Shown piece by piece: positions 25,966 through 42,528 of a stretch of 64,000 bases of DNA (positions are counted from its first letter, which is position 1; each line of letters opens with the position of its first letter). Origin of the DNA: Bdellovibrionales bacterium (GTDB lineage Bacteria > Bdellovibrionota > Bdellovibrionia > Bdellovibrionales > UBA1609); NCBI GenBank assembly GCA_014323935.1, contig JACOND010000005.1:17428-81427 (forward strand), given 5' to 3'. Both the position numbers and the translations under genes were made by a program. Under the pieces are notes generated by a model that saw only the letters and a list, made by a program, of their open reading frames with translations, was not told the origin of the DNA and made no database searches.

Positions 25966-26019
25966 TTAGACCCTTTCATTTGAAAATAAATTACCATACT
26001 TTAGAATCCTCCTTTAATT

Positions 26020-26290
26020 TATGCAAAATGTTGAAAAAGACATTTCTAAAGTATTAAAAAGGATATGACTTGTCAATTGTATAAATTTTATACAAGGTAT
26101 TGAAAAAGATATTTTTTTACCTAAAAGTCTTAAAAGAAAGATATTACTTGTTAATTATATAAATTTTACGCAAGGTATTGAAAAAGATATTTTTTTACCT
26201 AAAGTCTTAAAAAAAGATATGACTTGTCAATTGTATAAATTTATGTAAGGTATTGAAAATTACCTAAAAAAGATATGACTTGTTAATAAC
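26020..26290. repeat. degenerate tandem repeat array, unit about 77 bp, roughly 3.5 copies
   Basis: Units start at 26062, 26140, 26216 and 26272 (partial), with a partial unit before 26062. Unit: GATATGACTTGTCAATTGTATAAATTTTATACAAGGTATTGAAAAAGATATTTTTTTACCTAAAAGTCTTAAAAG. Copy 1 carries the perfect 19-bp palindrome TTGTATAAATTTTATACAA (26077-26095). Confidence 0.85.
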
Positions 26291-26580
26291 TTTGTTAAAA
26301 CTAATGTGGTTGTCATGGGAACAATCTCCTACTAATAAAGGAGTTAGAAAGTAGTAGAATTCATCTATATGGATAAAAGCACATTTCTTCACGAAGCAAA
26401 TAAATATGTTAAAGATGGGTTTACAACTAAATAGTAAAAATTTTTGAGTTTTAATAAAAGTAGAATATAAATGAATTTATTTTTTAAATCAAGAAAATTG
26501 TAATAAAGTCACAATGGAAATTTTAAAATCTTTACATGAAAATATAGCTAGTAAAAGATTAACTTATAAAGAAAAATAAC

Positions 26581-27363
26581 ATGGAAAATTTAAATAACTT
26601 TATTTCAAATTTTTTAGATAATAAATATTGTTTAAAAAACAAGCTGTATAATGGTTATGGTGAAATATTTTTAGGGGATTGTTTTGATCTTTTGAAATAT
26701 ATTCCTGATGGCACAATAGATTTAATAGCAACAGATCCTCCTTATGAAATAAATTTTGAAAATAATGATTGGGACAAAAAACAAATCAATTGGAGTTTCT
26801 TATCGAATGAATTTTTAAGAGTATTGAAACAAAACGGAAATCTTATTTTATTTCAAGGTTGGTCTAATGTTGTGAAGACAATAAACAATTTTAATAAAAA
26901 ATTCATTTTAAAAAATTGGATTATATTCGACAGAATAAAAGGAAGGGGTGCTAAAACCAATTTTGTTTCAACAAGAGAAGATATTTTGTGGTTTATTAAA
27001 AGCGAAAAATATCAATATAATAAAATGCCTTCAAATATAATAAAAAAAACCAGAGGAATGGGAGATAAAAACGGAACAAGATTTAGAGCTTTATCTAATG
27101 TATGGACAGATATATCTCCAATCGTCCCATGGGATTCTGAAAGAGTCAATCACCCAACACAAAAACCAGTGGCATTAATGAATAGAATTGTTAATATATT
27201 TTCAAAAAAAGATGATATTGTTTTAGATTGTTTTGCTGGTTCAGGAACTACAGCTGTATCATGTATAAAAAATAAAAGAAAATTTATTTGTTTTGAAAAA
27301 GATATAAAATATTTTAATTTATCTAAAAAACGAATAAAAAATGTCATTAAAGAGATTTGTTGA
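26581..27363 (+). CDS. beta-class N6-adenine/N4-cytosine DNA methyltransferase (N-4/N-6 methylase domain), apparently orphan
   Basis: 260 aa. Catalytic motif IV ATDPPY precedes the AdoMet motif I DCFAGSGTT (beta-class order), plus HPTQKPVAL. No intact restriction endonuclease gene is adjacent. Confidence 0.85.
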   Translation: MENLNNFISNFLDNKYCLKNKLYNGYGEIFLGDCFDLLKYIPDGTIDLIATDPPYEINFENNDWDKKQINWSFLSNEFLRVLKQNGNLILFQGWSNVVKTINNFNKKFILKNWIIFDRIKGRGAKTNFVSTREDILWFIKSEKYQYNKMPSNIIKKTRGMGDKNGTRFRALSNVWTDISPIVPWDSERVNHPTQKPVALMNRIVNIFSKKDDIVLDCFAGSGTTAVSCIKNKRKFICFEKDIKYFNLSKKRIKNVIKEIC

Positions 27364-27392
27364 ATTTTTAACTAAATTTAAAAAAATAAAAC

Positions 27393-27771
27393 TTGGGACT
27401 TCTGACTGTAAGAAATAACAACATGGATATGACTTCCTGTCTTAAATATTTTGTTAAAGGATTTTTATTCCAAAGGAATGAAGTTAGGGACATTGGGAAA
27501 AAAGTTATCTTGAAAGATGCTCTCATAAAAAATCATAATCTTTCTAAAAGACAGAAAATCATTTTGGAGTATCTTTTAGATAATAACAAATTATGATAAA
27601 ATTCTTACTCAGTTTGAAAAGTCAGATAAAAGTTTAAAAACATCAGCTAAAGTGACAAAAAGGACGCTTCAAAGAGATCTAAAAGATATGATTGGTAAAA
27701 AAATCATAGAGTCGAAAGGTAAAACCAATCAAAAATTTTATCATCTTGTAAAAGAAGGATTGAATTTATGA
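27393..27771 (+). pseudogene. remnant resembling the C-terminal wHTH region of a Fic/DOC-family protein
   Basis: LSKRQKIILEYLLDNNKL, then double stops and a frame change, then VTKRTLQRDLKDMIGKKIIESKGKTNQKFYHLV. This pattern is typical of Fic-family C-termini. No HPFxxGNGR core is present. Confidence 0.35.
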
Positions 27772-27821
27772 TAAAACTTACGACAAAACTTGTGACATTT
27801 TTATAACAAGGAGTTTGATAA

Positions 27822-28230
27822 ATGACGAATAATATTAAAAAAATTGCTTTTGAAAAAGCTATAGAACAGCATCTTTTAAATAAGGGTGGATACATTAGGG
27901 GTATAGGAAACACTTTGATTGCTTCGTGGCATGGATTCTAAAATGCTAAATTCTTTTATAAAAGAAACTCAAAAAAAGAATGGGAAGCTTTATATAAGCT
28001 TCAAAAAGAGAAAACAGAAGAGATTCTAATTGAAGACTTATGTAAGGCTTTAGATTCAAATTATGAAGGCTGTTTAAAATTTCTTCCGTACATGAGCTTT
28101 AAATGTTTTGGAAAGCTCTTTAGAGTGGCTTATTTTGCTCCTGCTAGTGGATTAAATTCCGATACTCAAAAACTCTATTCTTCAAGCAAGCTGACTTTCA
28201 CAAGGCAACTTAAATACAGTAGTAAAAATT
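27822..28230 (+). pseudogene. hsdR: N-terminal fragment of a type I restriction enzyme R subunit (HsdR), frameshifted and truncated
   Basis: MTNNIKKIAFEKAIEQHLLNKGGYI... continues across at least two frames as FIKETQKKEWEALYKL...FGKLFRVAYFAPASGLNSDTQKLYSSSKLTFTRQLKYSSKN. This matches the conserved HsdR N-terminal block (..AYF.P.SGLN....LY..N.L.VTRQ..YS). Helicase domains are absent. Confidence 0.6.
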
Positions 28231-28246
28231 TTTACTTCGGAAGCTC

Positions 28247-28829
28247 ATGATTCAACAGATAGGTTACGCCCAGCCTATCATTCCAGTGCTTTTCTATCAT
28301 GAAAAAGAGTCTTTAAAGTGGAAAAATTATCTTCAAGAGGAAAATTTTAAGTTATTTTTTTCAAAAATTCCTAGAGAATCAAGAGAGAGTATGTTAAACT
28401 ATGAACCAAAGATAATAAATATGCAAAGACCTTAAAATAAGAAAGGCGTCTAAGAAGTTTAAAGGACATGGGCTTATAAAGTTATTAGATGAGATATGGA
28501 GTTTAAAAAAGAACATAAATCTTTTAAAGACAATAGAAACTTATATAGGTTTTGAGGAGATATTGAAAGGTTTAAAGCTAGAAAGACAGTTAAGGATATG
28601 GGAGTATTAAAAGAAGGAGGACTTATGCAAGATGTAAGAGAAGTTATTAAAGAAAAAGGGATTTGGGAAGGAATGCAAAAAGGACGATAAGAAGTGCAAA
28701 AAATTGTTTTAAATATGCTGAAAGAAAGATATTGCTTTTATTTCTAAAATTACAGGTTTTTTTAAAGAAGAAATTAAAGAAGAATTCTTAAAAAGAGCTA
28801 CTAGTATTTTACTTATTGGGTTTAAGTAA
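28247..28829 (+). pseudogene. C-terminal fragment of an Rpn-family (YhgA-like) recombination-promoting nuclease/putative transposase
   Basis: PIIPVLFYHEKESLKW...LNYEPKIINM, followed in other frames by EGMQKG.. and ISKITGFFKEEIKE, typical of Rpn C-terminal halves. The N-terminal PD-(D/E)xK domain is missing and there are multiple stops. Confidence 0.5.
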
Positions 28830-29088
28830 ATATTTGTCTTTAAACTTTATCAAAAGACTTAAAGTGTTCAAAATTTGTCTAGTATAAAGAAAAAACTTCT
28901 TAAATTCCTTAATTATTTTTTATGAAGCTGGAAAAAATTTGATTTTTGTTATAAAAATAAGGGTAAGGAATTAAGTTAAAAAAGTATTTAAAAAGGAATA
29001 TCTTAAGTTTATCAAATTTGCTTTCTATTTTGATGTTTGATAAAGGTTAGTTTTGTGTAAATTAACAAAAAAAAGGATTTTTTTGGTT

Positions 29089-30429
29089 ATGAATATTAAA
29101 AATTGTATCATTGTTTTTAGTTTATTGTGGGTCTCTGTTTCTCATGCTTATCCCTGGATGTTTTTTAGAGAAAGAAATGATTCTGATATTATAAGATTAG
29201 ACAGTCATGCTTCTTATTTTTTTGATAAAGAAGTGTCTTTTTTTTCTGGCTTAGATTTGAATTATCATAATCCTATGTTAGACCTAGATTTAGGTTACAT
29301 TTACTCTCATTTAGAAAACAATCATTATTTTAGATTAAGTGAATTGTCTGTTAATTTTCCTTTACCTTGGAACAAATGGATTATGTCTATAGGTTTTCAA
29401 AATATTTTATGGAGTGAATTGGATCGTTATTGGAATTATGGTTTATGGCAGGCTCGTTTTCTTTTAGATCCTTTGAGAACAGAACAAATGGGAATGCCAG
29501 GGTTGTCTTTTCGGTATAAGACAATAAAGAGTTCTTTTATCCTTTTGTTCTCTTATTTACAATTACCTGATTTTCAAATTTATCCAGAGTTTATTGATAA
29601 CAGGGTGTCTTCAAGAAATCCTTTATTCAAATCTACTCAGGGGGTTAATGTTAATAAATTATCTTCTGAGTTATTTAAGCTTGAGAAATTTTTAAAACCA
29701 GGTTTAGCTTTTCAATTAAAACATTCTATCGATTCGCTTCATCTTAATTTTTCTTATGCTTATAAAGGAATGAATCAACTAAAAAAAGCTTTTCTATTTA
29801 AAGGTTTCAGTCCCTTAAAATCATCTTCAATTTCTCTAGAAGAGTTTAATTATTTTTCTTTATACCATGAATTAAGTTCTTTAGAAGCTGAGTTAGAATT
29901 TTCTCCAACCTTCTCTTTATTTGCTGGGGTCTTTTATGAGGAACCGAAAGATAAAAAAATTCCTAAAGATTGGTGGAGCAGTGATTTTTCTTCTCACCTC
30001 ACTTTTTCTGTTTTAGCTTATTTTAAAGAGCATTGGGATAACAGTCAAAATACTTTATTTACTTTAGGTGGAACTCATATCCAAGAAGAGAAAACTTCTT
30101 TTAATTCAAACGTTTTAACAGATGATTATAAGAAACTTTTCAGCCGAGAGTTTGATTGGAAGTCTGCTATCAGTGCCTCTGTTGAACATGAAAATAAGAA
30201 TTTCTATAAAGGTATTCTTTTTAGATTCAGAACAATTTATGCTTTAGATAACCAGGTGTATCATTTTATGTTTGAAAACTATTTGTATTTTGACGATTAT
30301 ATTCGTTTTTATTTATCAGGAGATTTTGTGAGACGATTTTCTCAAAGAGTTGTTCTTGTAGAGAGTTCTTCTATTAAGAGATATAATGGATTAAGTCGTA
30401 TTTTACTTGGAGTGCAGTGTGTTTTTTAA
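29089..30429 (+). CDS. hypothetical secreted protein, predicted outer-membrane beta-barrel (module copy A, gene 1)
   Basis: Likely start MNIKNC at 29089. Signal peptide ...VSVSHA|YPW. Aromatic-rich alternating segments and a C-terminal aromatic (...LLGVQCVF). Shares the block WS..D.YW..GLW....(D/N)PL......G..G with the 32693 ORF. Confidence 0.5.
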   Translation: MNIKNCIIVFSLLWVSVSHAYPWMFFRERNDSDIIRLDSHASYFFDKEVSFFSGLDLNYHNPMLDLDLGYIYSHLENNHYFRLSELSVNFPLPWNKWIMSIGFQNILWSELDRYWNYGLWQARFLLDPLRTEQMGMPGLSFRYKTIKSSFILLFSYLQLPDFQIYPEFIDNRVSSRNPLFKSTQGVNVNKLSSELFKLEKFLKPGLAFQLKHSIDSLHLNFSYAYKGMNQLKKAFLFKGFSPLKSSSISLEEFNYFSLYHELSSLEAELEFSPTFSLFAGVFYEEPKDKKIPKDWWSSDFSSHLTFSVLAYFKEHWDNSQNTLFTLGGTHIQEEKTSFNSNVLTDDYKKLFSREFDWKSAISASVEHENKNFYKGILFRFRTIYALDNQVYHFMFENYLYFDDYIRFYLSGDFVRRFSQRVVLVESSSIKRYNGLSRILLGVQCVF

Positions 30430-30436
30430 ACTACAA

Positions 30437-32689
30437 ATGAAATTTTTTGTTATCTTTTTAGCTTTTAGTCCTTTAAAACTTTTTGCAGAAAAAGGGGATT
30501 TTAGTTTTCTTAGCCTCATTGGTGAATCAAAGTGTGTGAAATATATAAATCATTACTATCCGCATTTTATAAATGGGAATCTAAATCAAGAAGGACAAGA
30601 TAAATGGTTTCGTTGCCTGTGGAGTTTTTTAGATGCTGTTGTTAATAAAAAAATCTTGATACATGACTCTTCAAGAGATCATTTTACAAGAGAAGAAATT
30701 TTTAACCTCTTTCATAAACTTTTTGAGTATGGAAAAGTCAAATCAAATCGTTTAACAAACCAACTTTTATTTATAAAGAAATTGTTAGTAGGTGGTTCTA
30801 TTGATAAATTGAGAGATCAAGAATTATCTCATTTGTTTCACTTGATTCATGATGAAAATGGTTCAAATGATTATAGATTAGCTTATTTCATTATTCATAA
30901 AGAAATTCCTACTTTAAGAAAACTCTTTAGAGGAGAAATTGTTAGAGAGAAAGCTAGAGATAAAGCTTTAGAGCAATTGAGAAAAACTCTTATTATTTTA
31001 GAAAGAGCGTATAAAAGAGTGCAAGTGAGTTACAGTATTGAAGATATTTCTCAATATCCAAAATATATGGGAATGAAAGATTCAAAACTTCAATCGTTAT
31101 TTTTATATTTACATCATTTATTAAGAGGAAGTGTTTTTCCTAAAAAAGCAATAGAAGGAAAAGATTGGTCTGTTTTTAATCATTTGATTCTTGGTAACTT
31201 TGAGTTATTGTTTTATATTAATAAATACTTTAATAAAAAAAATAATACCATACAAATTACTTATAACTCTTTATCAGTTTTAGAAAAATTTATGGAGCTT
31301 TTATCTTCTAATGAAAATCTCTTTTTAAAAAGAGGTTTTCCTGTTAGAAACCTTGATGGAATCTTGAAGGCTTCTTTCTCTCTAATTAAAAGTTTTGTAA
31401 CAAGTTCCAATCCTTTATTTTCCTTATTTGATGATGAGACAAAAATTAGTTTGATAACACGTGTTTTGACGTGTTTTTCTTTAAATGAAAAAGGTAAGAA
31501 GGAGTGTTCAATTGATTGGATGACAAATGATTCGTCTCTTGTAAAAATTTCTTTTCCGGACTCAGAGTTTTCATTTTTTAAAAATTATATTCAAAGAAAA
31601 GATAAAAAAACGACTTATTTTATATCTTCTAAAAAGATAGAAAAACTGAAAGATTGGACAATTTCTTACAGAATAGACCTTTTTCAGATTTATGACGATT
31701 TTGAAAAATCTGTAGCTATTCAAAGACAATTTGATCATTGGCTAAAGAATTTTTTTGGTTGGAATGAAAAAAAACAAATGATTTTTGGAAACGTTCAAAA
31801 TCTTGCTGATAATAAATTTAAAACAACACATCTTTTAGCTTACCATTCTATTTTATCTCTCCTTTTATCTTATCATGTTCCAAAAGCTTATTTTTTAGGA
31901 AAAACAGATCTTAAACTTCAACAATGGCAATCTCTTCTTTCTGATTTAACTCCTTTATTTTTTACTTTCTTAGATGAGGGAGGATATAATTTATCTTGGA
32001 GGGACATTGCTGGAAACATGTTTTCAATAGCTGATCTTTTTTTAAATTCTTCTGATTTAAGTGATACTTTGAGTTCAAGAGAATTATTGGATCTTGTTAT
32101 TCATCTTGATGCCTCGTTTCAGCAAGCTCAAAAGATATCCTCTCTGATATCTTCGATTTGTAGTTCAAACAATTTTCTCTCTTGCACTGTTAAAACAATT
32201 ATAGATCATCCTGAAGGTCTTGCTCCCTTTCCTCTACTTAAACGTTATATTACGGATTTTCGCAGGAAAAAATATGAAGACAATATGAAAAGGCTGTTAT
32301 TTGGATTACAAAAAAACAAGAATTCTTCCTTACTTTTAACCGAACTGTTCTTTTTACTTCAGGTTATGGAAGTTAACTATTATCAGAGAATAAATACCGA
32401 CTTGATTTTCAATTTAGAAACTCATGAACTTCTTGCTTTTTCTGATCAGTTTAAAGAGAGAGTTTATAAACAAATTCCTTATATTTATAATGAAGATCAA
32501 GGTCTTTCTTACATTATGTATGTTTTTAGGACAGGCTCTTTTCCATTTTTTACGGGATCTGAATTTGAAACGATTCTATTTTCTAATTGGTATCTTAAGA
32601 AGAGACATAAGAAAGATTTTGAAGTGTCTCCTAGTAGATTTCATAATCTTGTCTTTGATTTACATCATTTATATAAAAAATATTGGTAG
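30437..32689 (+). CDS. hypothetical secreted helical protein (module copy A, gene 2)
   Basis: Likely start MKFFVIFLAFSPLKLFA at 30437, 7 nt after the upstream stop. 750 aa, Leu/Phe/Lys-rich. No domain recognised. The C-terminal block aligns with the EF-hand-like region of the 34080 ORF. Confidence 0.5.
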   Translation: MKFFVIFLAFSPLKLFAEKGDFSFLSLIGESKCVKYINHYYPHFINGNLNQEGQDKWFRCLWSFLDAVVNKKILIHDSSRDHFTREEIFNLFHKLFEYGKVKSNRLTNQLLFIKKLLVGGSIDKLRDQELSHLFHLIHDENGSNDYRLAYFIIHKEIPTLRKLFRGEIVREKARDKALEQLRKTLIILERAYKRVQVSYSIEDISQYPKYMGMKDSKLQSLFLYLHHLLRGSVFPKKAIEGKDWSVFNHLILGNFELLFYINKYFNKKNNTIQITYNSLSVLEKFMELLSSNENLFLKRGFPVRNLDGILKASFSLIKSFVTSSNPLFSLFDDETKISLITRVLTCFSLNEKGKKECSIDWMTNDSSLVKISFPDSEFSFFKNYIQRKDKKTTYFISSKKIEKLKDWTISYRIDLFQIYDDFEKSVAIQRQFDHWLKNFFGWNEKKQMIFGNVQNLADNKFKTTHLLAYHSILSLLLSYHVPKAYFLGKTDLKLQQWQSLLSDLTPLFFTFLDEGGYNLSWRDIAGNMFSIADLFLNSSDLSDTLSSRELLDLVIHLDASFQQAQKISSLISSICSSNNFLSCTVKTIIDHPEGLAPFPLLKRYITDFRRKKYEDNMKRLLFGLQKNKNSSLLLTELFFLLQVMEVNYYQRINTDLIFNLETHELLAFSDQFKERVYKQIPYIYNEDQGLSYIMYVFRTGSFPFFTGSEFETILFSNWYLKKRHKKDFEVSPSRFHNLVFDLHHLYKKYW

Positions 32690-32692
32690 TGT

Positions 32693-34090
32693 ATGATTTT
32701 TCAAAAGATTTTAATGAGTTTTATTTTGTTTTCCTTTTATGTTAAGGGAGAGACATCTGATAAGGATGTTAATTTTTTTGAACTAGAATGGGAACACTAT
32801 ACTTCTGAAGGGACTCTTCAAGAGCAATTGAAAAATTATGTTTTTGTTAAAGGAGATTATTCTTTTAATTTTACAAAAAGTGATTTTTCTTTTAGGACTC
32901 AATTGAAATATCAATATAGCTTAGATCATAAAGATTGGTTTCATTTTGATCTTCCAGAAATTTTTCTGTTTTATAAATATGATTTTAAGACATCCTTTAA
33001 ACTCTTAAAATCTATTGAATTTTATTTAGGGAGAAAAGTTAAAAAGTGGAGTCTAGGGGATGATTATTGGGATTTAGGTTTATGGAATTCTCTTATTCTT
33101 TGGAATCCTTTAGAACCTATGGTAAAAGGGAATGTTGGTTCTTTTTTAACTTTTAAATCAGAAAATTGGGAAACTGATTTTTTTCTTGGAGCTTTACATA
33201 TCCCTAACACAAACGCTAACTTCTTTGTAAGAGATAAGACCCCTCGCACCTATTCTCGCTGGGGAACTCTTTTACCTAATAAAGTAGATGAATATAACCT
33301 TTCTATTTACTATGAATTCATTAAACCTTTCTATTTTGATTTTATTAATAAAAAAAGTTTTTTTGTTAATTTTAAAACATGGACTGAAAAATCAGATATT
33401 TTTTGTTGGTTTAAAATTTCTTTTGCAGATAAGCCTACAAATCATCTTTATTATATCATGAATAAAAAACATAGATTAAAAGTTGATTCAAATAAATCTA
33501 AAGAACCTTTGTTTATAGATCAAGTTTTGACAGGAATATTTTCACGGCAAAGAATCTTATCTACAGAATGGGGCATTAATTATAATAAAATTTTATCTAT
33601 GACTGTGAGTTTAGAAAATACAAAAATAAAAGAAGAAAAGGCTTTAGATCAAGAGAATTGGAGTTTTATAAATTCTAGAGAAAGTTTTACTTACTTTTCT
33701 GGAATTTTAAAATATCAGTATTCACCTGAGAGTTTTTTTGAATTAGGTTTTATTCAATCTTGGTTTAATAAATATAGAAATCAAAAAAATACAGTTCAAC
33801 CTGTTTTTGTAAGTCAAAACAAAATTTTAAACGGATTAAGTTTAGCTTTTGAAAAGAGGAGTTCTACTTTGAAAGGTTTGCCTCTTATTTTTAACTTGAA
33901 ATATCAGTATTCTTTTTTGGGTAGAGGAGCTTGGCTTTCTACAAATTTTTTATATTACATGGGAGAGAAATTTTATACAAAGTGGTCAGCTCATATCTTA
34001 GGATCAGGAGTTAAAAATCAAAGTCAATCTTTTTTAAGTATATTTAAACATAATGATTATTTTACTTGGAGTTTTGTTTATGATTTTTAG
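32693..34090 (+). CDS. hypothetical secreted protein, predicted outer-membrane beta-barrel (module copy B, gene 1); paralog of 29089..30429
   Basis: Starts 3 nt after the upstream stop. Signal peptide MIFQKILMSFILFSFYVKG. Ends ...FTWSFVYDF (terminal Phe). Shared motif KKWSLGDDYWDLGLWNSLILWNPLEPMVKGNVG. Confidence 0.5.
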   Translation: MIFQKILMSFILFSFYVKGETSDKDVNFFELEWEHYTSEGTLQEQLKNYVFVKGDYSFNFTKSDFSFRTQLKYQYSLDHKDWFHFDLPEIFLFYKYDFKTSFKLLKSIEFYLGRKVKKWSLGDDYWDLGLWNSLILWNPLEPMVKGNVGSFLTFKSENWETDFFLGALHIPNTNANFFVRDKTPRTYSRWGTLLPNKVDEYNLSIYYEFIKPFYFDFINKKSFFVNFKTWTEKSDIFCWFKISFADKPTNHLYYIMNKKHRLKVDSNKSKEPLFIDQVLTGIFSRQRILSTEWGINYNKILSMTVSLENTKIKEEKALDQENWSFINSRESFTYFSGILKYQYSPESFFELGFIQSWFNKYRNQKNTVQPVFVSQNKILNGLSLAFEKRSSTLKGLPLIFNLKYQYSFLGRGAWLSTNFLYYMGEKFYTKWSAHILGSGVKNQSQSFLSIFKHNDYFTWSFVYDF

Positions 34091-35429
34091 TAGAGTTAGA
34101 AAAAAGATCTTTCTTGGAATTTGTTTCTTGTTCATGAGCTGTGGTTTGAAAATAGGAGAAAAACCTCCTGTTATCCCTGTGTATAAATTTCAAATGAATC
34201 AAAATGATTTATGTTCAAGTTTAGATTATCAAGAAGAACTTATAAAATATTTTTTTAGTTCTACTAAGTTAAATAGTCATAAACTTGGTCAAATATTAGA
34301 GTGTCTATCTGATCAGGTCTCTGCTGTTAAGGATTTATTTCATAATGAATATTTAACAAAAGAAGATATCATTATTATTTTAGAAAATGATTGGATTGAT
34401 TTAGGGAATTTAAAACCTTTTTTAATAAAGGTTTTAAAATCTAGAAGAGATGAGAAAATTCTTTTTTTTAAAAAACATTTTATTCAATTTATTTCTTCAA
34501 ACTCTAAATTAGATTTAAAAGCTAAAGATTTGTGTTTAATTTCTGAGAGAATTCAGAAAAACTCTGAGAATCTTATTTCAGAGCCTAAGAAAAATGAAGC
34601 TCTTATATCAAAATCAGATGTGGATGTTTTTTTAAATTTTTTAAAGGAATTTTATGAACTTCTTTTTTTCATTGAAGATAAATCTAAGTATCTTTTTCGT
34701 TGGTTTTTTTATGAAACTTCCTCTGATAAAGAAGCTTTTTTTGATAATAAAGATAAATTTAGAAACTTTATTTTTTTTCTACAAGATGTTTACTCTGAGA
34801 AATTCTCTAATTATTCTAATTTTTTAAGGAGTCATTCTAAAGCTATGTCTGAAAGATACCCTAGAGGTTATGAAAAATTTCTTGAAGAGATGATACATAT
34901 TACTCAATCCTTTGATTTGTCTTTGGAGGATGAGACTGTTCATGTGCTTGATATTAAATATATGTTTATAGTTATTGAGGCTATGAGATTTTTTTTCCAG
35001 GTTTATGATTTGAATCAAAACTCTATTATAGATTCTCAGGAATTAAAGCCTGTGTCTTGTCTTCTTGAAGGGCTTGTTTTTCTTTTTTTACCAGACCTTT
35101 TAAAAAAGTTAGAATTGGAAGAACCTATAAAGAAGAGAGGTATTGAATTTGCGATTAAAAATAATGTCCTTACCACTCGTGATATCACTCGTTATATGTT
35201 AAATTATCAGAAGATTCCTGATAATGAAATGGACTTGGAGGATATATACAATCTCTTTGTTAATGAAGAAATAAAAAGCCTTTCTGTTAGAGAAGTTTCT
35301 CGTTTGATACTATTATTTTTTAATATAGTAATAGATGAAATTGAATCTCTTGACAGTATTTCTGAATTTAGGAATAAAGAAATGGAAGAAAATAAAAAAA
35401 ATAAAAGTACAGATGAAATTTCAAACTAA
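34080..35429 (+). CDS. hypothetical lipoprotein with EF-hand-like loop (module copy B, gene 2)
   Basis: Likely start MIFSRVRKK at 34080, overlapping the upstream gene by 11 nt. Lipobox-like FLFMSC|G. The loop DLNQNSIIDSQE (35007-35042) fits EF-hand positions 1, 3, 5, 9 and 12. Confidence 0.5.
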   Translation: MIFSRVRKKIFLGICFLFMSCGLKIGEKPPVIPVYKFQMNQNDLCSSLDYQEELIKYFFSSTKLNSHKLGQILECLSDQVSAVKDLFHNEYLTKEDIIIILENDWIDLGNLKPFLIKVLKSRRDEKILFFKKHFIQFISSNSKLDLKAKDLCLISERIQKNSENLISEPKKNEALISKSDVDVFLNFLKEFYELLFFIEDKSKYLFRWFFYETSSDKEAFFDNKDKFRNFIFFLQDVYSEKFSNYSNFLRSHSKAMSERYPRGYEKFLEEMIHITQSFDLSLEDETVHVLDIKYMFIVIEAMRFFFQVYDLNQNSIIDSQELKPVSCLLEGLVFLFLPDLLKKLELEEPIKKRGIEFAIKNNVLTTRDITRYMLNYQKIPDNEMDLEDIYNLFVNEEIKSLSVREVSRLILLFFNIVIDEIESLDSISEFRNKEMEENKKNKSTDEISN

Positions 35430-36537
35430 AGCTATACATAGTTCACAAAGTCCTGATTCTCAAACAGGAGCTGTTGTAACTCCTATTGTTACAAGCACAA
35501 CTTTTAGAATTAAAGAACCAGGAAAACCTGTAGAATATGACTATTCTAGGGTCTCTACTCCTACAAGGAAAACTCTAGAAAACTGTATGGCAGACTTAGA
35601 AAAAGGGTCTTATTGTTTCGCTTTAGCTTCAGGTTGTTCGGCCCTACATATTGTATCTCAGCTTTTAAAACCAGGAGATTTCGTTCTTATGGAAGAAGAT
35701 TCTTATGGAGGGAGTTTAAGACTTTTAGAGCATTTAAAAAAAGTTCAAGGAATTCAAGTAAAACTTATAGATTTTTCTAATTTAGAACAGTTGAAAAAAG
35801 AACTTCATTTTAAAGTTAAAATGATTTTTTTAGAAAGTCCTACAAATCCTCTTCTCAAAATTATTGACATTCCAGCAATTGCAAAGCAGAAAGCTTCAGA
35901 GAGTTTATTGGTTGTTGATAATACTTTTTCGAGTCCTTATTTTCAAAATCCTTTAGATTTAGGAGCTGATATTGTTATTCATTCTGCAACGAAATATATA
36001 GGAGGACATAGTGATTGTTTAGCAGGTCTTTTAATTTCTAATAGATTAGATTTAAAGGAATCCTTTACTTTTTTTAATAAAACGATAGGTTCTGTTTTAT
36101 CCCCTTTTGATTCTTATTTGTTACTTAGAAGCTTAAAAACTTTAGCTTTAAGGATGGAAAGACATCATGAAAATGCTTTAGAGTTAGCTCATTTTCTAGA
36201 AAAGCAAGCTCAAGTCGATCAGGTTTTTTATCCTGGGTTAAAATCTCATAAAGGACATGAAATAGCTAAGAAACAAATGAGAGGCTTTGGAGGAGTTTTA
36301 AGTTTTATTATTAAAGGAAAGCAAAAACAAGCTTTATCTTTTTTAAAACAATTAAAGATTTTTACTTTAGCAGAAAGTTTAGGAGCTGTTGAATCTTTAG
36401 CAGAACATCCTTTAACTATGACTCATGGAGCTTATGGAAGTTCTTCTGTTACAGAGAGCTTGATTCGTCTCAGTGTAGGGCTTGAAGATATTGAAGATCT
36501 TATTCAAGATGTTCAACAGGCTTTTTCCTGTCTTTGA
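35413..36537 (+). CDS. Cys/Met-metabolism PLP-dependent enzyme (cystathionine gamma-lyase/gamma-synthase/beta-lyase family)
   Basis: True start MKFQTKAIH at 35413; the track ORF starts earlier at 35335. PLP-lysine motif SATKYIGGHSD and the C-terminal LIRLSVGLEDIEDLI block. Overlaps the upstream ORF by 17 nt. Confidence 0.85.
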   Translation: MKFQTKAIHSSQSPDSQTGAVVTPIVTSTTFRIKEPGKPVEYDYSRVSTPTRKTLENCMADLEKGSYCFALASGCSALHIVSQLLKPGDFVLMEEDSYGGSLRLLEHLKKVQGIQVKLIDFSNLEQLKKELHFKVKMIFLESPTNPLLKIIDIPAIAKQKASESLLVVDNTFSSPYFQNPLDLGADIVIHSATKYIGGHSDCLAGLLISNRLDLKESFTFFNKTIGSVLSPFDSYLLLRSLKTLALRMERHHENALELAHFLEKQAQVDQVFYPGLKSHKGHEIAKKQMRGFGGVLSFIIKGKQKQALSFLKQLKIFTLAESLGAVESLAEHPLTMTHGAYGSSSVTESLIRLSVGLEDIEDLIQDVQQAFSCL

Positions 36538-36648: not shown

Positions 36649-36724
36649 GGCTCGGTAGCTCAGTCGGTAGAGCAGAAGACTGAAAATCTTTGTGTCGGCG
36701 GTTCAATTCCGTCCCGAGCCACCA
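36649..36724 (+). tRNA. tRNA-Phe (anticodon GAA), CCA encoded
   Basis: GGCTCGG acceptor stem pairs with CCGAGCC. D-arm AGCTCAGTCGGTAGAGC. Anticodon loop CTGAAAA. T-arm GGTTCAATTCC. Close to canonical bacterial tRNA-Phe. Confidence 0.95.
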
Positions 36725-41450: not shown

Positions 41451-41540
41451 GGAGAGGTGGCAGAGCGGTTGATTGCACCGGTCTTGAAAACCGGCAGACC
41501 TTTACGGGTCTCGGGGGTTCAAATCCCTCCCTCTCCGCCA
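41451..41540 (+). tRNA. tRNA-Ser (anticodon UGA), long variable arm, CCA encoded
   Basis: Acceptor GGAGAGG/CCTCTCC. Anticodon stem CCGGT/ACCGG with loop CTTGAAA (TGA). Extended variable arm CAGACCTTTACGGGTCTC. T-arm GGTTCAAATCC. Confidence 0.95.
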
Positions 41541-41558: not shown

Positions 41559-42528
41559 ATGAGAAACATAAAGTCCAACTTAAAATTTATTGATTTTTGT
41601 GCTGGAATAGGTGCTGGAAGAATTGGTTTGGAATCTCTAGAGATGAAGTGTGTTGGTTTTTCTGAAATTGATAAAAACTCTGAAAAAACATATAGAGATT
41701 TTTTTGGTTTTGATGAAAATAAATTTTGAAGACTTACCAGATTTTAATCTCATGATTGCAGGTTTTCCATGTCAAACTTTTTCTATCCTTGGAAAGAGAT
41801 AAGGGATGAAAGAGAATCGGGGTCAAATTATTTATGGCTTGATAAAGATAATGAAAGCAGTAAATCTGAAATATTTTAGAGAATGTGAAAGGGCTTTTAA
41901 ATCATGGTGGTGGTTTCTCAATGAAGCTTAATCTTAAAGGAATTGGATAAAGCGGGTTATAAAGTATTTTGGAAATTAACAAACAGTTTATATCATGGCG
42001 TTCCGCAAATGAGGGAGAGAATTTATTTTGTTGGAGTAAGAAAAGATTTAGTAAGAAATGAAAGTGTTTTTCAATTTCCAAAAGAAATTAAAAAACCAGA
42101 TCTGAGTAAATACCTAGTAAATACTGAGGAATTGGAACTGAATGAGAAGAAAACCAGCTATGAGACTTTTTTAAGATATTTAAAAAATAAATATAATAAA
42201 AATAAATTTTCAATAGAAAAATTATTAGAAGAAGATTTTTTAGTCATAGATACACGTCAATCTGATTTGAGGTTATATCGTGACAAGGTTCCTAAGCTAA
42301 GAACAGGAAGACATGGGATTTTGTATGTAAGAGATGGAAAATTTAGAAAACTATCTGGCGATGAGGCTTTATCTTTGCAAGGATTTCCTGAAGAATTGAG
42401 AGAAAAAGTAAAAGGTAAAATTGTAGACATGTATTTTAGGGAAGGCAGGAAATGCCATGACGGTAAATGTGGTTAGAGCTTTTGGAGAAAGCCTTTTAAA
42501 TTTTATAAAAAAACAAGCTGAAAAGTAA
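41559..42528 (+). pseudogene. dcm: DNA (cytosine-5) methyltransferase gene, multiply frameshifted/nonsense-interrupted
   Basis: All C5-MTase motifs are present but spread over three frames. Motif I DFCAGIGAG, IV GFPCQTFS, VI LENVKGL, VIII GVPQMRERIYFVG, X AGNAMTVNVV. In-frame stops follow DENKF and ILGKR. Starts 18 nt after tRNA-Ser. Confidence 0.8.

Follow-up and report, generated by a model that had tools for sequence, protein, structure and literature searches.

The window analysed here is a stretch of 64,000 nucleotides (nt) from a Bdellovibrionales bacterium (assembly GCA_014323935.1, contig JACOND010000005.1, positions 17,428 to 81,427 of the forward strand). It is AT-rich (GC content about 29%) and contains four co-directional genes that, as judged from the list of open reading frames (ORFs) and direct translation, span positions 29089-35429 of the plus strand. 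These genes constitute a duplicated module in which the gene for a predicted outer-membrane beta-barrel is followed by the gene for a Sec-exported, mostly helical partner:

29089..30429, plus strand: gene 1, predicted type I outer-membrane beta-barrel, 446 amino acids (aa)
30419..32689, plus strand: gene 2, type I partner, 756 aa from GTG 30419, or 750 aa from ATG 30437
32693..34090, plus strand: gene 3, predicted type II outer-membrane beta-barrel, 465 aa
34080..35429, plus strand: gene 4, type II partner, 449 aa, with a lipobox-like motif, apparently a shortened member of the partner family

The locus (locus tags GDA46_02505/02510) has the same sequence in three independent assemblies, and no further members of these families are found elsewhere in the window. 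A preliminary description made from the sequence alone had reported the four-ORF layout with its lengths and overlaps, the signal peptides, the terminal phenylalanines, a block shared by genes 1 and 3, and EF-hand-like loops in genes 2 and 4, all of which were reproduced. It had not been able to assign any of the four proteins to a family by eye, and the searches bear this out: Pfam-A and NCBIfam scans of genes 1-4 identify no family above threshold, and the same holds for the members of the 28-, 34- and 27-sequence alignments, among which the partners give sub-threshold EF-hand matches only. Across 62 barrel homologues, there is no recurring Pfam or NCBIfam match, even a weak one. Every homologue match comes from a metagenome-assembled genome (MAG) labelled Bdellovibrionales, Bdellovibrionaceae or Oligoflexia; judging by their names, several of these MAGs presumably represent bacteria associated with sponges or other marine hosts. 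As far as these matches go, the barrels and the partners are unnamed families limited to small-genome Bdellovibrio-like bacteria.

The two barrel proteins show the N-terminal and C-terminal signals expected of outer-membrane proteins. The Sec signal peptides, as read from the sequence, are MNIKNCIIVFSLLWVSVSHA followed by YPW in gene 1 (that is, ending in SHA before YPW) and MIFQKILMSFILFSFYVKG followed by ETS in gene 3, and the C-terminal beta-signals are ..GVQCVF and ..WSFVYDF, respectively. A terminal phenylalanine is present in the barrel at 19 of 19 junctions with a partner gene and the pattern Y-x-F in 18 of them; the type II barrel of the related locus L015, which was read separately, is an exception and ends with ..TYAIH (the related loci are denoted L001 and L004-L016). 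Gene 1 has 40 homologues and gene 3 has 30, none of them annotated. A BLASTP comparison of gene 1 with gene 3 aligns only a 56-aa block, WS..D.YW..GLW, with an E-value of 2e-5, whereas the comparison of the two family profiles with hhalign extends over 408 columns with the probability of 99.2% and an E-value of 1.4e-19, at 16% identity over the aligned columns. Both the shared block and the paralogy proposed for genes 1 and 3 are thereby upheld.

The AlphaFold2 model of gene 3, built on a 28-sequence alignment, has a predicted local distance difference test score (pLDDT) of 75 and a predicted template modelling score (pTM) of 0.75, and is all-beta, with 18-20 strands and turns of 2-6 residues on one side. 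A Foldseek search of PDB started with this model yields 235 matches at E ≤ 0.001, and the 50 matches listed are all porin or AlgE-type barrels and derivatives; the best of those listed are OmpT, OmpF, OmpC, AlgE and the major outer-membrane protein (MOMP), with E-values of about 1e-8, template modelling (TM) scores of 0.35-0.52 and 7-12% identity. The earlier assignment of gene 3 as a barrel agrees with these results. For gene 1, a barrel fold is likely by virtue of the 99.2% profile match to gene 3, the modelled barrel being that of gene 3. Neither gene 1 nor gene 3 matches any of the named porin families (Porin_1, Porin_4, Porin_5, LamB, OprD, Alginate_exp) above the gathering score. The barrel profiles have a single sequence match in PDB, a Natterin-like (aerolysin-type) protein, 5zu4, with an E-value of 3.5e-4 to positions 249-347 of the gene 1 profile (window positions ~29830-30130); it was treated as probable noise caused by beta-rich sequence, and no other match was found.

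The block common to the two barrels coincides with a long loop of the gene 3 model:

29404..29502, plus strand: conserved block of gene 1, ILWSELDRYWNYGLWQARFLLDPLRTEQMGMPG, counterpart of the L3-like loop of gene 3
33035..33130, plus strand: gene 3 residues 115-146, KVKKWSLGDDYWDLGLWNSLILWNPLEPMVKG, the L3-like loop that connects strands 5 and 6

Residues W108, D112, W115, G118, W120, R123, D127, G135 and G138 of the gene 1 block are invariant in 34 sequences, and the block aligns with the gene 3 motif in both BLASTP and hhalign comparisons. The loop between strands 5 and 6 of gene 3 (32 residues), which bears the aromatic motif common to both barrels, is the most conserved non-strand segment (conservation 0.75, compared with 0.68 for the strands); most other long loops score 0.41-0.59, and L6-L8 only 0.41-0.46. 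In the model, the position of this loop matches that of the L3 constriction loop of porins, and the pattern of conservation is porin-like. By analogy, the loop may lie in the lumen of the barrel.

The partner proteins are less readily classified. An exhaustive HMMER search of 1.84 billion cluster representatives identifies only 43 proteins of the gene 2 family at E ≤ 0.001. The AlphaFold2 model of gene 2, from a 27-sequence alignment (pLDDT 86.4, pTM 0.84), consists of about 38 helices and a small beta region (residues 358-389), in agreement with the description of the partners as mostly helical. A Foldseek search of PDB started with this model detects no fold match (best E-value 0.08, TM-score at most 0.16); the matches are HEAT/exportin-type solenoids and, given these TM-scores, no assignment is made. 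Members of the gene 2 family contain a signal peptide of the signal-peptidase-I type, without a lipobox, followed by a conserved Cys...Cys pair. Gene 4, in contrast, contains the lipobox-like sequence ..FMSC followed by GLKIGE; Cys21 is invariant and precedes a conserved GLxIGE. The preliminary description had singled out this FMSC, and its cysteine is kept in every gene-4-type or long lipoprotein partner read, although the motif deviates from the lipobox consensus, [LVI][ASTVI][GAS]C: position -3 is often outside L, V and I in these proteins, as in the F-M-S-C of the window, and position -1 is S or G in most of them but His in four. Altogether, gene 4 has invariant cysteines at positions 21, 45, 75, 152 and 327. 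The conserved Cys pairs and the signal peptides suggest that the partners are exported to an oxidising site.

Of the four genes, gene 4 evolves most rapidly: mean orthologue identities across six genomes are 50, 40, 44 and 31% for genes 1 to 4, respectively, and a word-indexed search with gene 4 finds only four homologues besides the self match. A BLASTP search shows no link between gene 2 and gene 4, and the first comparison of their profiles aligned only the EF-hand region (E-value 6e-4). The connection became apparent through the longer partners of L011-L014 and L015, which consist of 770-815 aa and start with a gene-4-type, lipobox-like N-terminus, CGLxVGE. The alignment between the long lipoproteins and the gene 2 family spans 589 columns (probability 99.3%, E-value 8.9e-21), and hhalign matches gene 4 to the long lipoproteins in an N-terminal segment of 97 columns (probability 93%, E-value 3.3e-7) and a C-terminal segment of 174 columns that includes the EF loop (E-value 3e-4). 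Gene 4 also matches the gene 2 family in two collinear blocks (E-values 2.3e-6 and 5.5e-4). Because the blocks are collinear in both comparisons, gene 4 is best read as a partner that lacks about 300 central residues. The alignment of genes 2 and 4 around an EF-hand-like loop, proposed originally by eye, thus extends to paralogy of the partners. The partner of L006 (11376-14171) is a 931-aa lipoprotein with two gene-4-like modules, each containing a canonical EF loop, and with an acidic, repeat-rich insert (..VEPTPSVE[DE][IL]GQS..); this is a case of internal duplication rather than duplication of the pair.

Three EF-hand-like loops can be delineated in the partners encoded in the window:

32048..32086, plus strand: loop A of gene 2, SSDLSDTLSSREL, residues 538-550 (750-aa numbering), E549 invariant
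32393..32431, plus strand: loop B of gene 2, NTDLIFNLETHEL, residues 653-665, E664 invariant
35007..35045, plus strand: canonical EF-hand loop of gene 4, DLNQNSIIDSQEL, residues 310-322, kept in 9 of 9 orthologues

The gene 4 loop, DLNQNSIIDSQE followed by L, reads D310-L-N-Q-N-S-I-I-D-S-Q-E321 and is canonical at positions 1, 3, 5, 8, 9 and 12, which fits the earlier reading of positions 1, 3, 5, 9 and 12. Only 0.009 occurrences of the pattern are expected per shuffled protein, so that the motif is not an artefact of composition; there are none in the 15,951 residues of the other proteins of the window. In the gene 2 family, the loop A column matches a relaxed EF pattern in 21 of 27 members, and loop B has the consensus DxNxSxxLExxEL, also in 21 of 27, with five members passing PROSITE PS00018. 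The glutamates E549 and E664, which occupy position 12 (-Z), belong to a set of just 14 residues that do not vary in the family. The gene 2 counterpart in the window had been described as degenerate, and so it is: position 5 of loop B is Ile and that ligand is lost.

At the gathering score, genes 2 and 4 do not qualify as members of a Pfam EF-hand family, despite recurrent weak matches. Gene 4 scores 14.6 bits against EF-hand_6, below the 25-bit cutoff; five of ten partner orthologues give a sub-threshold EF-hand match at this site, orthologue scores ranging from 12.6 to 27.3 bits, and EF-hand_7 is matched weakly by 8 of 27 gene 2 relatives. When the gene 2 profile is compared with PDB, 12 of the 14 weak matches (E-value 0.013 or weaker) are to EF-hand or related Ca2+-binding proteins at loop B, including parvalbumin, oncomodulin and Entamoeba CaBP, and the gene 4 profile weakly matches NOX5 and calmodulin. 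The helix-flanked 12-residue loop, D-x-N-x-[DN]-x-x-[IL]-[DS]-x-x-E, resembles that of EF-hand proteins such as calmodulin and parvalbumin, or EfhP and calsymin among bacterial ones. Unlike in those proteins, all Pfam scores are below the gathering threshold, and the loops are single sites within helical proteins of 420-800 aa, not compact EF-hand pairs. At the level of sequence, the EF-hand motif is real and conserved; Ca2+ binding by the partners is a putative function.

The association between barrel and partner is maintained throughout the lineage. The two genes are adjacent, in one pair or two, in 13 of 13 other genomes examined, so that the pairing noted in the preliminary description is conserved in every related genome surveyed. 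The tandem four-gene order is found in L004, L005, L007, L008, L009 and L010; L015 contains both pair types in divergent orientation; a single pair is seen in L006, a type II barrel with the 931-aa lipoprotein, and in each of L011-L014, a type II barrel with a long lipoprotein; and L016 shows a pair on a short contig. L015 (2314-10169) belongs to a more distant genome with 34% GC, in which a frameshift or an assembly error divides the type I barrel gene into ORFs of 338 and 135 aa. None of the three outcomes that the preliminary description had listed as contrary to its proposal, namely placement in a known family, a model that is not a barrel and pairing that is not conserved, was encountered.

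The junctions between barrel and partner genes have the same form in both pairs:

30419..30429, plus strand: junction 1, 11-nt overlap GTGTTTTTTAA, the gene 2 start lying inside the gene 1 codons C-V-F-stop
34080..34090, plus strand: junction 2, 11-nt overlap ATGATTTTTAG, the gene 4 ATG lying inside the gene 3 codons Y-D-F-stop

At 19 of 19 junctions from 12 genomes, the coding sequence of the partner begins exactly 11 nt before the barrel gene ends. Eighteen of these have the form ATGnnTTTTAR, such that the barrel reads Y-x-F-stop and the partner M-x-F-(K/S/R); the gene 1/2 junction of the window has GTG (30419) instead. A GGAG-like Shine-Dalgarno sequence is located 8-11 nt upstream of the partner start, within the conserved W-S or L-G-G codons of the barrel. 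The spacing of 7-nt gap, 3-nt gap, 11-nt overlap and 17-nt overlap (the last with the downstream gene) given in the preliminary description is correct if gene 2 starts at ATG 30437. The start of gene 2 is, however, probably GTG 30419, because the 11-nt position is conserved, the gene callers agree on it (756 aa) and the family N-terminus MFFK is restored (the protein then begins MFFKLQMKFF...), and the 7-nt gap accordingly gives way to an 11-nt overlap. The overlapping junction, a layout that is classic for translational coupling, suggests such coupling of the barrel and the partner, and would constitute a natural example of it in which the start codon lies within the barrel assembly signal and is constrained by both proteins.

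The earlier view that the module was duplicated as a unit holds, given that the barrels are paralogous, the partners are paralogous and the same junction is found in both pairs. In a neighbour-joining tree, the gene 1 clade is separate from a clade that combines gene 3 with the barrels of single pairs, which indicates that the duplication is old, not recent; the 16% identity between the barrel profiles and the divergent orientation of the two pairs in L015 point the same way. It could be argued that there is no functional unit at all, but rather unrelated ORFs packed together by genome compaction and resembling each other in composition: the genome is AT-rich, BLASTP between gene 2 and gene 4 is empty, and the overlap with the downstream gene is incidental. 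This is exceedingly improbable in view of the profile E-values of 1e-19 to 1e-21 for barrels and partners, the confident structural models, and the pairing and junction that are kept even where the barrels are only 23-27% identical; chance co-location was rejected on the grounds of profile paralogy, conserved pairing and conserved junction.

The reading favoured here, with a probability of roughly 40%, is that the products of the locus form two channel complexes in the outer membrane, each consisting of barrel and partner at 1:1, with the partner as an accessory subunit stabilised by Ca2+. Translational coupling would provide for production of barrel and partner at a fixed ratio, and hence for a stable complex in the outer membrane. 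The barrel would be a selective diffusion channel in which the aromatic loop between strands 5 and 6 acts like the L3 constriction of porins and sets the specificity, and the partner, docked on the barrel and stabilised by Ca2+, would bind substrate, gate the channel or provide a scaffold. Docking at the periplasmic face would be more parsimonious because proteins of the gene 2 type have a plain signal peptide with no evident outward route, and those of the gene 4 type would be held by a lipid anchor in the inner leaflet. The two pairs might divide the labour, type I combining a diverged barrel with a soluble partner and type II employing a lipid-anchored partner. Given that the module is kept in chromosome-level assemblies of only 1.28-1.78 Mb, it probably performs a core envelope function, most likely nutrient uptake.

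Several observations weigh against this interpretation. The binding of barrel to partner and the side of the membrane on which the partner resides are predictions from the genes and from single-chain models. The L3-like loop of gene 3 is modelled with low confidence at residues 130-146 (pLDDT < 50), loop B of the window's own gene 2 has lost a ligand (Ile at position 5), and the flanks of the related loci contain no transporter, TonB or substrate-processing gene as a conserved neighbour. The rapid evolution of gene 4, together with EF-hands and disulfides, which are common in extracellular proteins, would also fit exposure at the cell surface.

The layout of the module recalls several known systems, but none of their defining domains that were looked for is present. 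With porins (OmpF/OmpC/OmpT, LamB and Campylobacter MOMP), the barrels share the signal peptide, the C-terminal aromatic beta-signal and the antiparallel barrel with short periplasmic turns, and in both cases strands 5 and 6 are connected by a long, conserved loop (L3 in porins). They differ from porins in sequence (7-12% identity, and no match of genes 1 and 3 to a porin Pfam family), in the number of strands (about 18-20 as opposed to 16) and in having an obligatory partner gene, coupled at the level of translation, which classical porins lack. In the AlgE-AlgK system of alginate export, a barrel of some 18 strands likewise works with a helical lipoprotein of the outer membrane (AlgK, a TPR protein), and AlgE has the best TM-scores for the gene 3 model, 0.46-0.49, among the matches listed. 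In the present case, however, Alginate_exp and TPR domains are absent, none of the loci has a polysaccharide synthase or modification gene within 8-10 kb, and the partner contains EF-hand loops and a fold without a match in PDB.

The resemblance to the SusC-SusD and BtuB-BtuG systems of Bacteroidota, which are stable barrel-lipoprotein complexes (PMC7782687, PMC10404256), raises the question of whether the partner instead captures the ligand on the extracellular face, as a surface lid, but on a barrel that is small and independent of TonB. The partner is a large helical protein, the gene order (barrel first, helical lipoprotein second) and the tandem arrangement of paralogous pairs mirror susC-susD loci (PMC7782687, PMC10404256), and the conserved CGLxIGE at the putatively lipidated Cys could be a sorting or docking element. 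The dissimilarities are nevertheless substantial. Pfam and NCBIfam searches reveal no plug, TonB box, TonB-dependent receptor or SusD/RagB domain, there is no 22-strand barrel or SusD/RagB fold, and the barrels, at about 450 aa, are half the size of SusC. Most of the predicted outer loops are poorly conserved (0.41-0.46 for L6-L8), which is unexpected for a conserved interface with a lid; partners of the gene 2 type are without a lipid anchor or a known route to the surface, so that one of the two partners is not lipidated; and the phylum is different. A surface lid is a rather doubtful alternative to a channel with a periplasmic subunit.

A different kind of surface location would result if each barrel exported or anchored its own partner, as in Slam/type 11 secretion systems (T11SS) or in two-partner secretion; extracellular Ca2+ would then help the partner fold outside the cell, and the partners would be proteins that interact with a host or prey. 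In T11SS, a DUF560 outer-membrane protein is encoded next to its cargo, a Sec-exported lipidated or soluble protein, in host-associated bacteria (PMC8406197). The arrangement of one barrel per partner in adjacent genes corresponds to that of T11SS outer-membrane proteins and their cargo (PMC8406197), and both putatively lipidated and non-lipidated partners exist, as among T11SS cargo. The rapid evolution of gene 4 and the internal duplication and acidic repeats of the L006 partner are features often seen in surface proteins, many extracellular proteins contain EF-hand loops and disulfides, and the lineage appears to be host-associated, as the MAG names suggest.

Cargo export is nonetheless unlikely. 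There is no DUF560 in the 62 barrel homologues, nor any POTRA or other secretion-related domain, and no periplasmic domain, of the TPR type or otherwise; moreover, the conserved L3-like loop is as in diffusion porins. A folded partner of 750 aa with several Cys pairs would have to pass through the lumen of an 18-20-strand barrel, and the tight coupling at the junction suits a complex of fixed ratio better than an exporter that handles many cargo molecules. The Slam barrel consists of 14 strands, so that the barrel described here is larger, and T11SS is not known to have start-in-stop coupling. Still less probable is the bolder variant in which the barrels are a new, dedicated translocon that threads and displays the coupled EF-hand partner, with folding driven by Ca2+ outside the cell and the products acting in contact with host or prey; were this the case, the module would represent a new single-component secretion and display system with a new cargo fold.

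The upstream context of the module is stable. The gene upstream is nrdA, the large subunit of ribonucleotide reductase, at every locus where the upstream gene is identified (the window, L001, L004-L006, L011 and L013), and it is oriented divergently from the module everywhere but in L006, where it runs in the same direction as the pair. This fixed position, the retention of the module in very small genomes and the lack of linked transport or catabolic genes could also point to a structural role, in which a lineage-specific major outer-membrane protein is combined with a Ca2+-dependent periplasmic strut and there is no specific transport; Ca2+ is a classic stabiliser of the outer membrane. This possibility is considered quite unlikely given that no partner contains a peptidoglycan-binding domain (OmpA_C, LysM or SLH), that the L3-like loop, being aromatic and conserved, suggests a selective pore, and that two specialised pairs are more easily explained by different substrates.

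Whatever its precise role, the locus is a new lineage-restricted variant of barrel-plus-partner outer-membrane systems, and a search of the literature found nothing specific on a system that combines an EF-hand lipoprotein with a barrel. If the reading as two-subunit channels is correct, an entire lineage of small-genome Bdellovibrio-like bacteria would build its outer-membrane channels as obligatory complexes of two subunits, the accessory one having a fold without a match in PDB and conserved loops of the Ca2+ type. The module is likely to be central to the feeding or the envelope integrity of these organisms. No general principle is altered, but four "hypothetical proteins" become two families amenable to testing.

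In contrast to the upstream side, the downstream neighbourhood varies:

35413..36537, plus strand: pyridoxal phosphate (PLP) enzyme gene of Cys/Met metabolism, Pfam PF01053, E-value 4e-139

The PLP enzyme gene follows the module in the subclade of the window, MutS takes its place in L010 and L006 (in the latter, after a 219-aa ORF), and DUF885 in L011 and L013. The 17-nt overlap of this gene with gene 4, reported previously, is correct, but because the downstream neighbour varies the overlap is incidental, and the PLP gene is a clade-specific neighbour and not a conserved member of the module. A role of the PLP enzyme and of a nearby sigma-54 activator as parts of the module was likewise rejected, since MutS or DUF885 is the downstream neighbour elsewhere and a tRNA-Phe gene lies between the two. 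This tRNA-Phe (GAA) gene is located at 36649-36724, between the PLP gene and the activator gene; the activator ORF start at GTG 36692 overlaps it, and the actual start is probably at about 36770, as in the 504-aa gene call in L001.

Upstream of gene 1, alignment of the window with L004, L005, L007, L008 and L009 reveals a conserved region:

28861..28958, plus strand: promoter-like region upstream of gene 1

It includes an upstream box, AAAGTGTTCA, that starts at 28861 and has the conserved form AAAGTGTT[CT]A..., and, at 28928-28958, CTGGAAAAAA-N-TTTTTGTTATAAA, a -35-like hexamer with a TGn-extended -10-like hexamer; the pair CTGGAAAAAA ... TTTTTGnTAATAAT is common to the six genomes. The conservation of these boxes suggests that they function as a promoter. 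A generic scan for promoters and terminators gave no signal above that of shuffled sequences in this AT-rich DNA, a search of 12 loci for the sigma-54 promoter pattern before the first barrel gene gave no match whose position was conserved, and an Rfam search of the window identified two tRNAs only and no riboswitch. Between the boxes, L005, L007 and L008 contain an inverted repeat, TGAAAGnTTTTCA, with variants in L009 and L010; it could be an operator, and is degenerate in the window.

The distance between nrdA and gene 1 is about 3.1 kb in the window (25966-29088), compared with only about 0.5-0.65 kb in L004 and L005. Within it lie the gene for an orphan N6/N4 DNA methyltransferase (26581-27363) and a set of short, broken ORFs that take up about 1.7 kb; the interval looks like a decayed insertion, which is consistent with the decayed mobile/defence patch that had been noted next to the module. 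Farther downstream, at 41559-42476 (18867-19784 in L001), directly after a tRNA-Ser gene (41451-41540), the gene for a DNA C5-methylase (PF00145) is broken into two short ORFs (56 and 155 aa) and is probably the remnant of a pseudogene.

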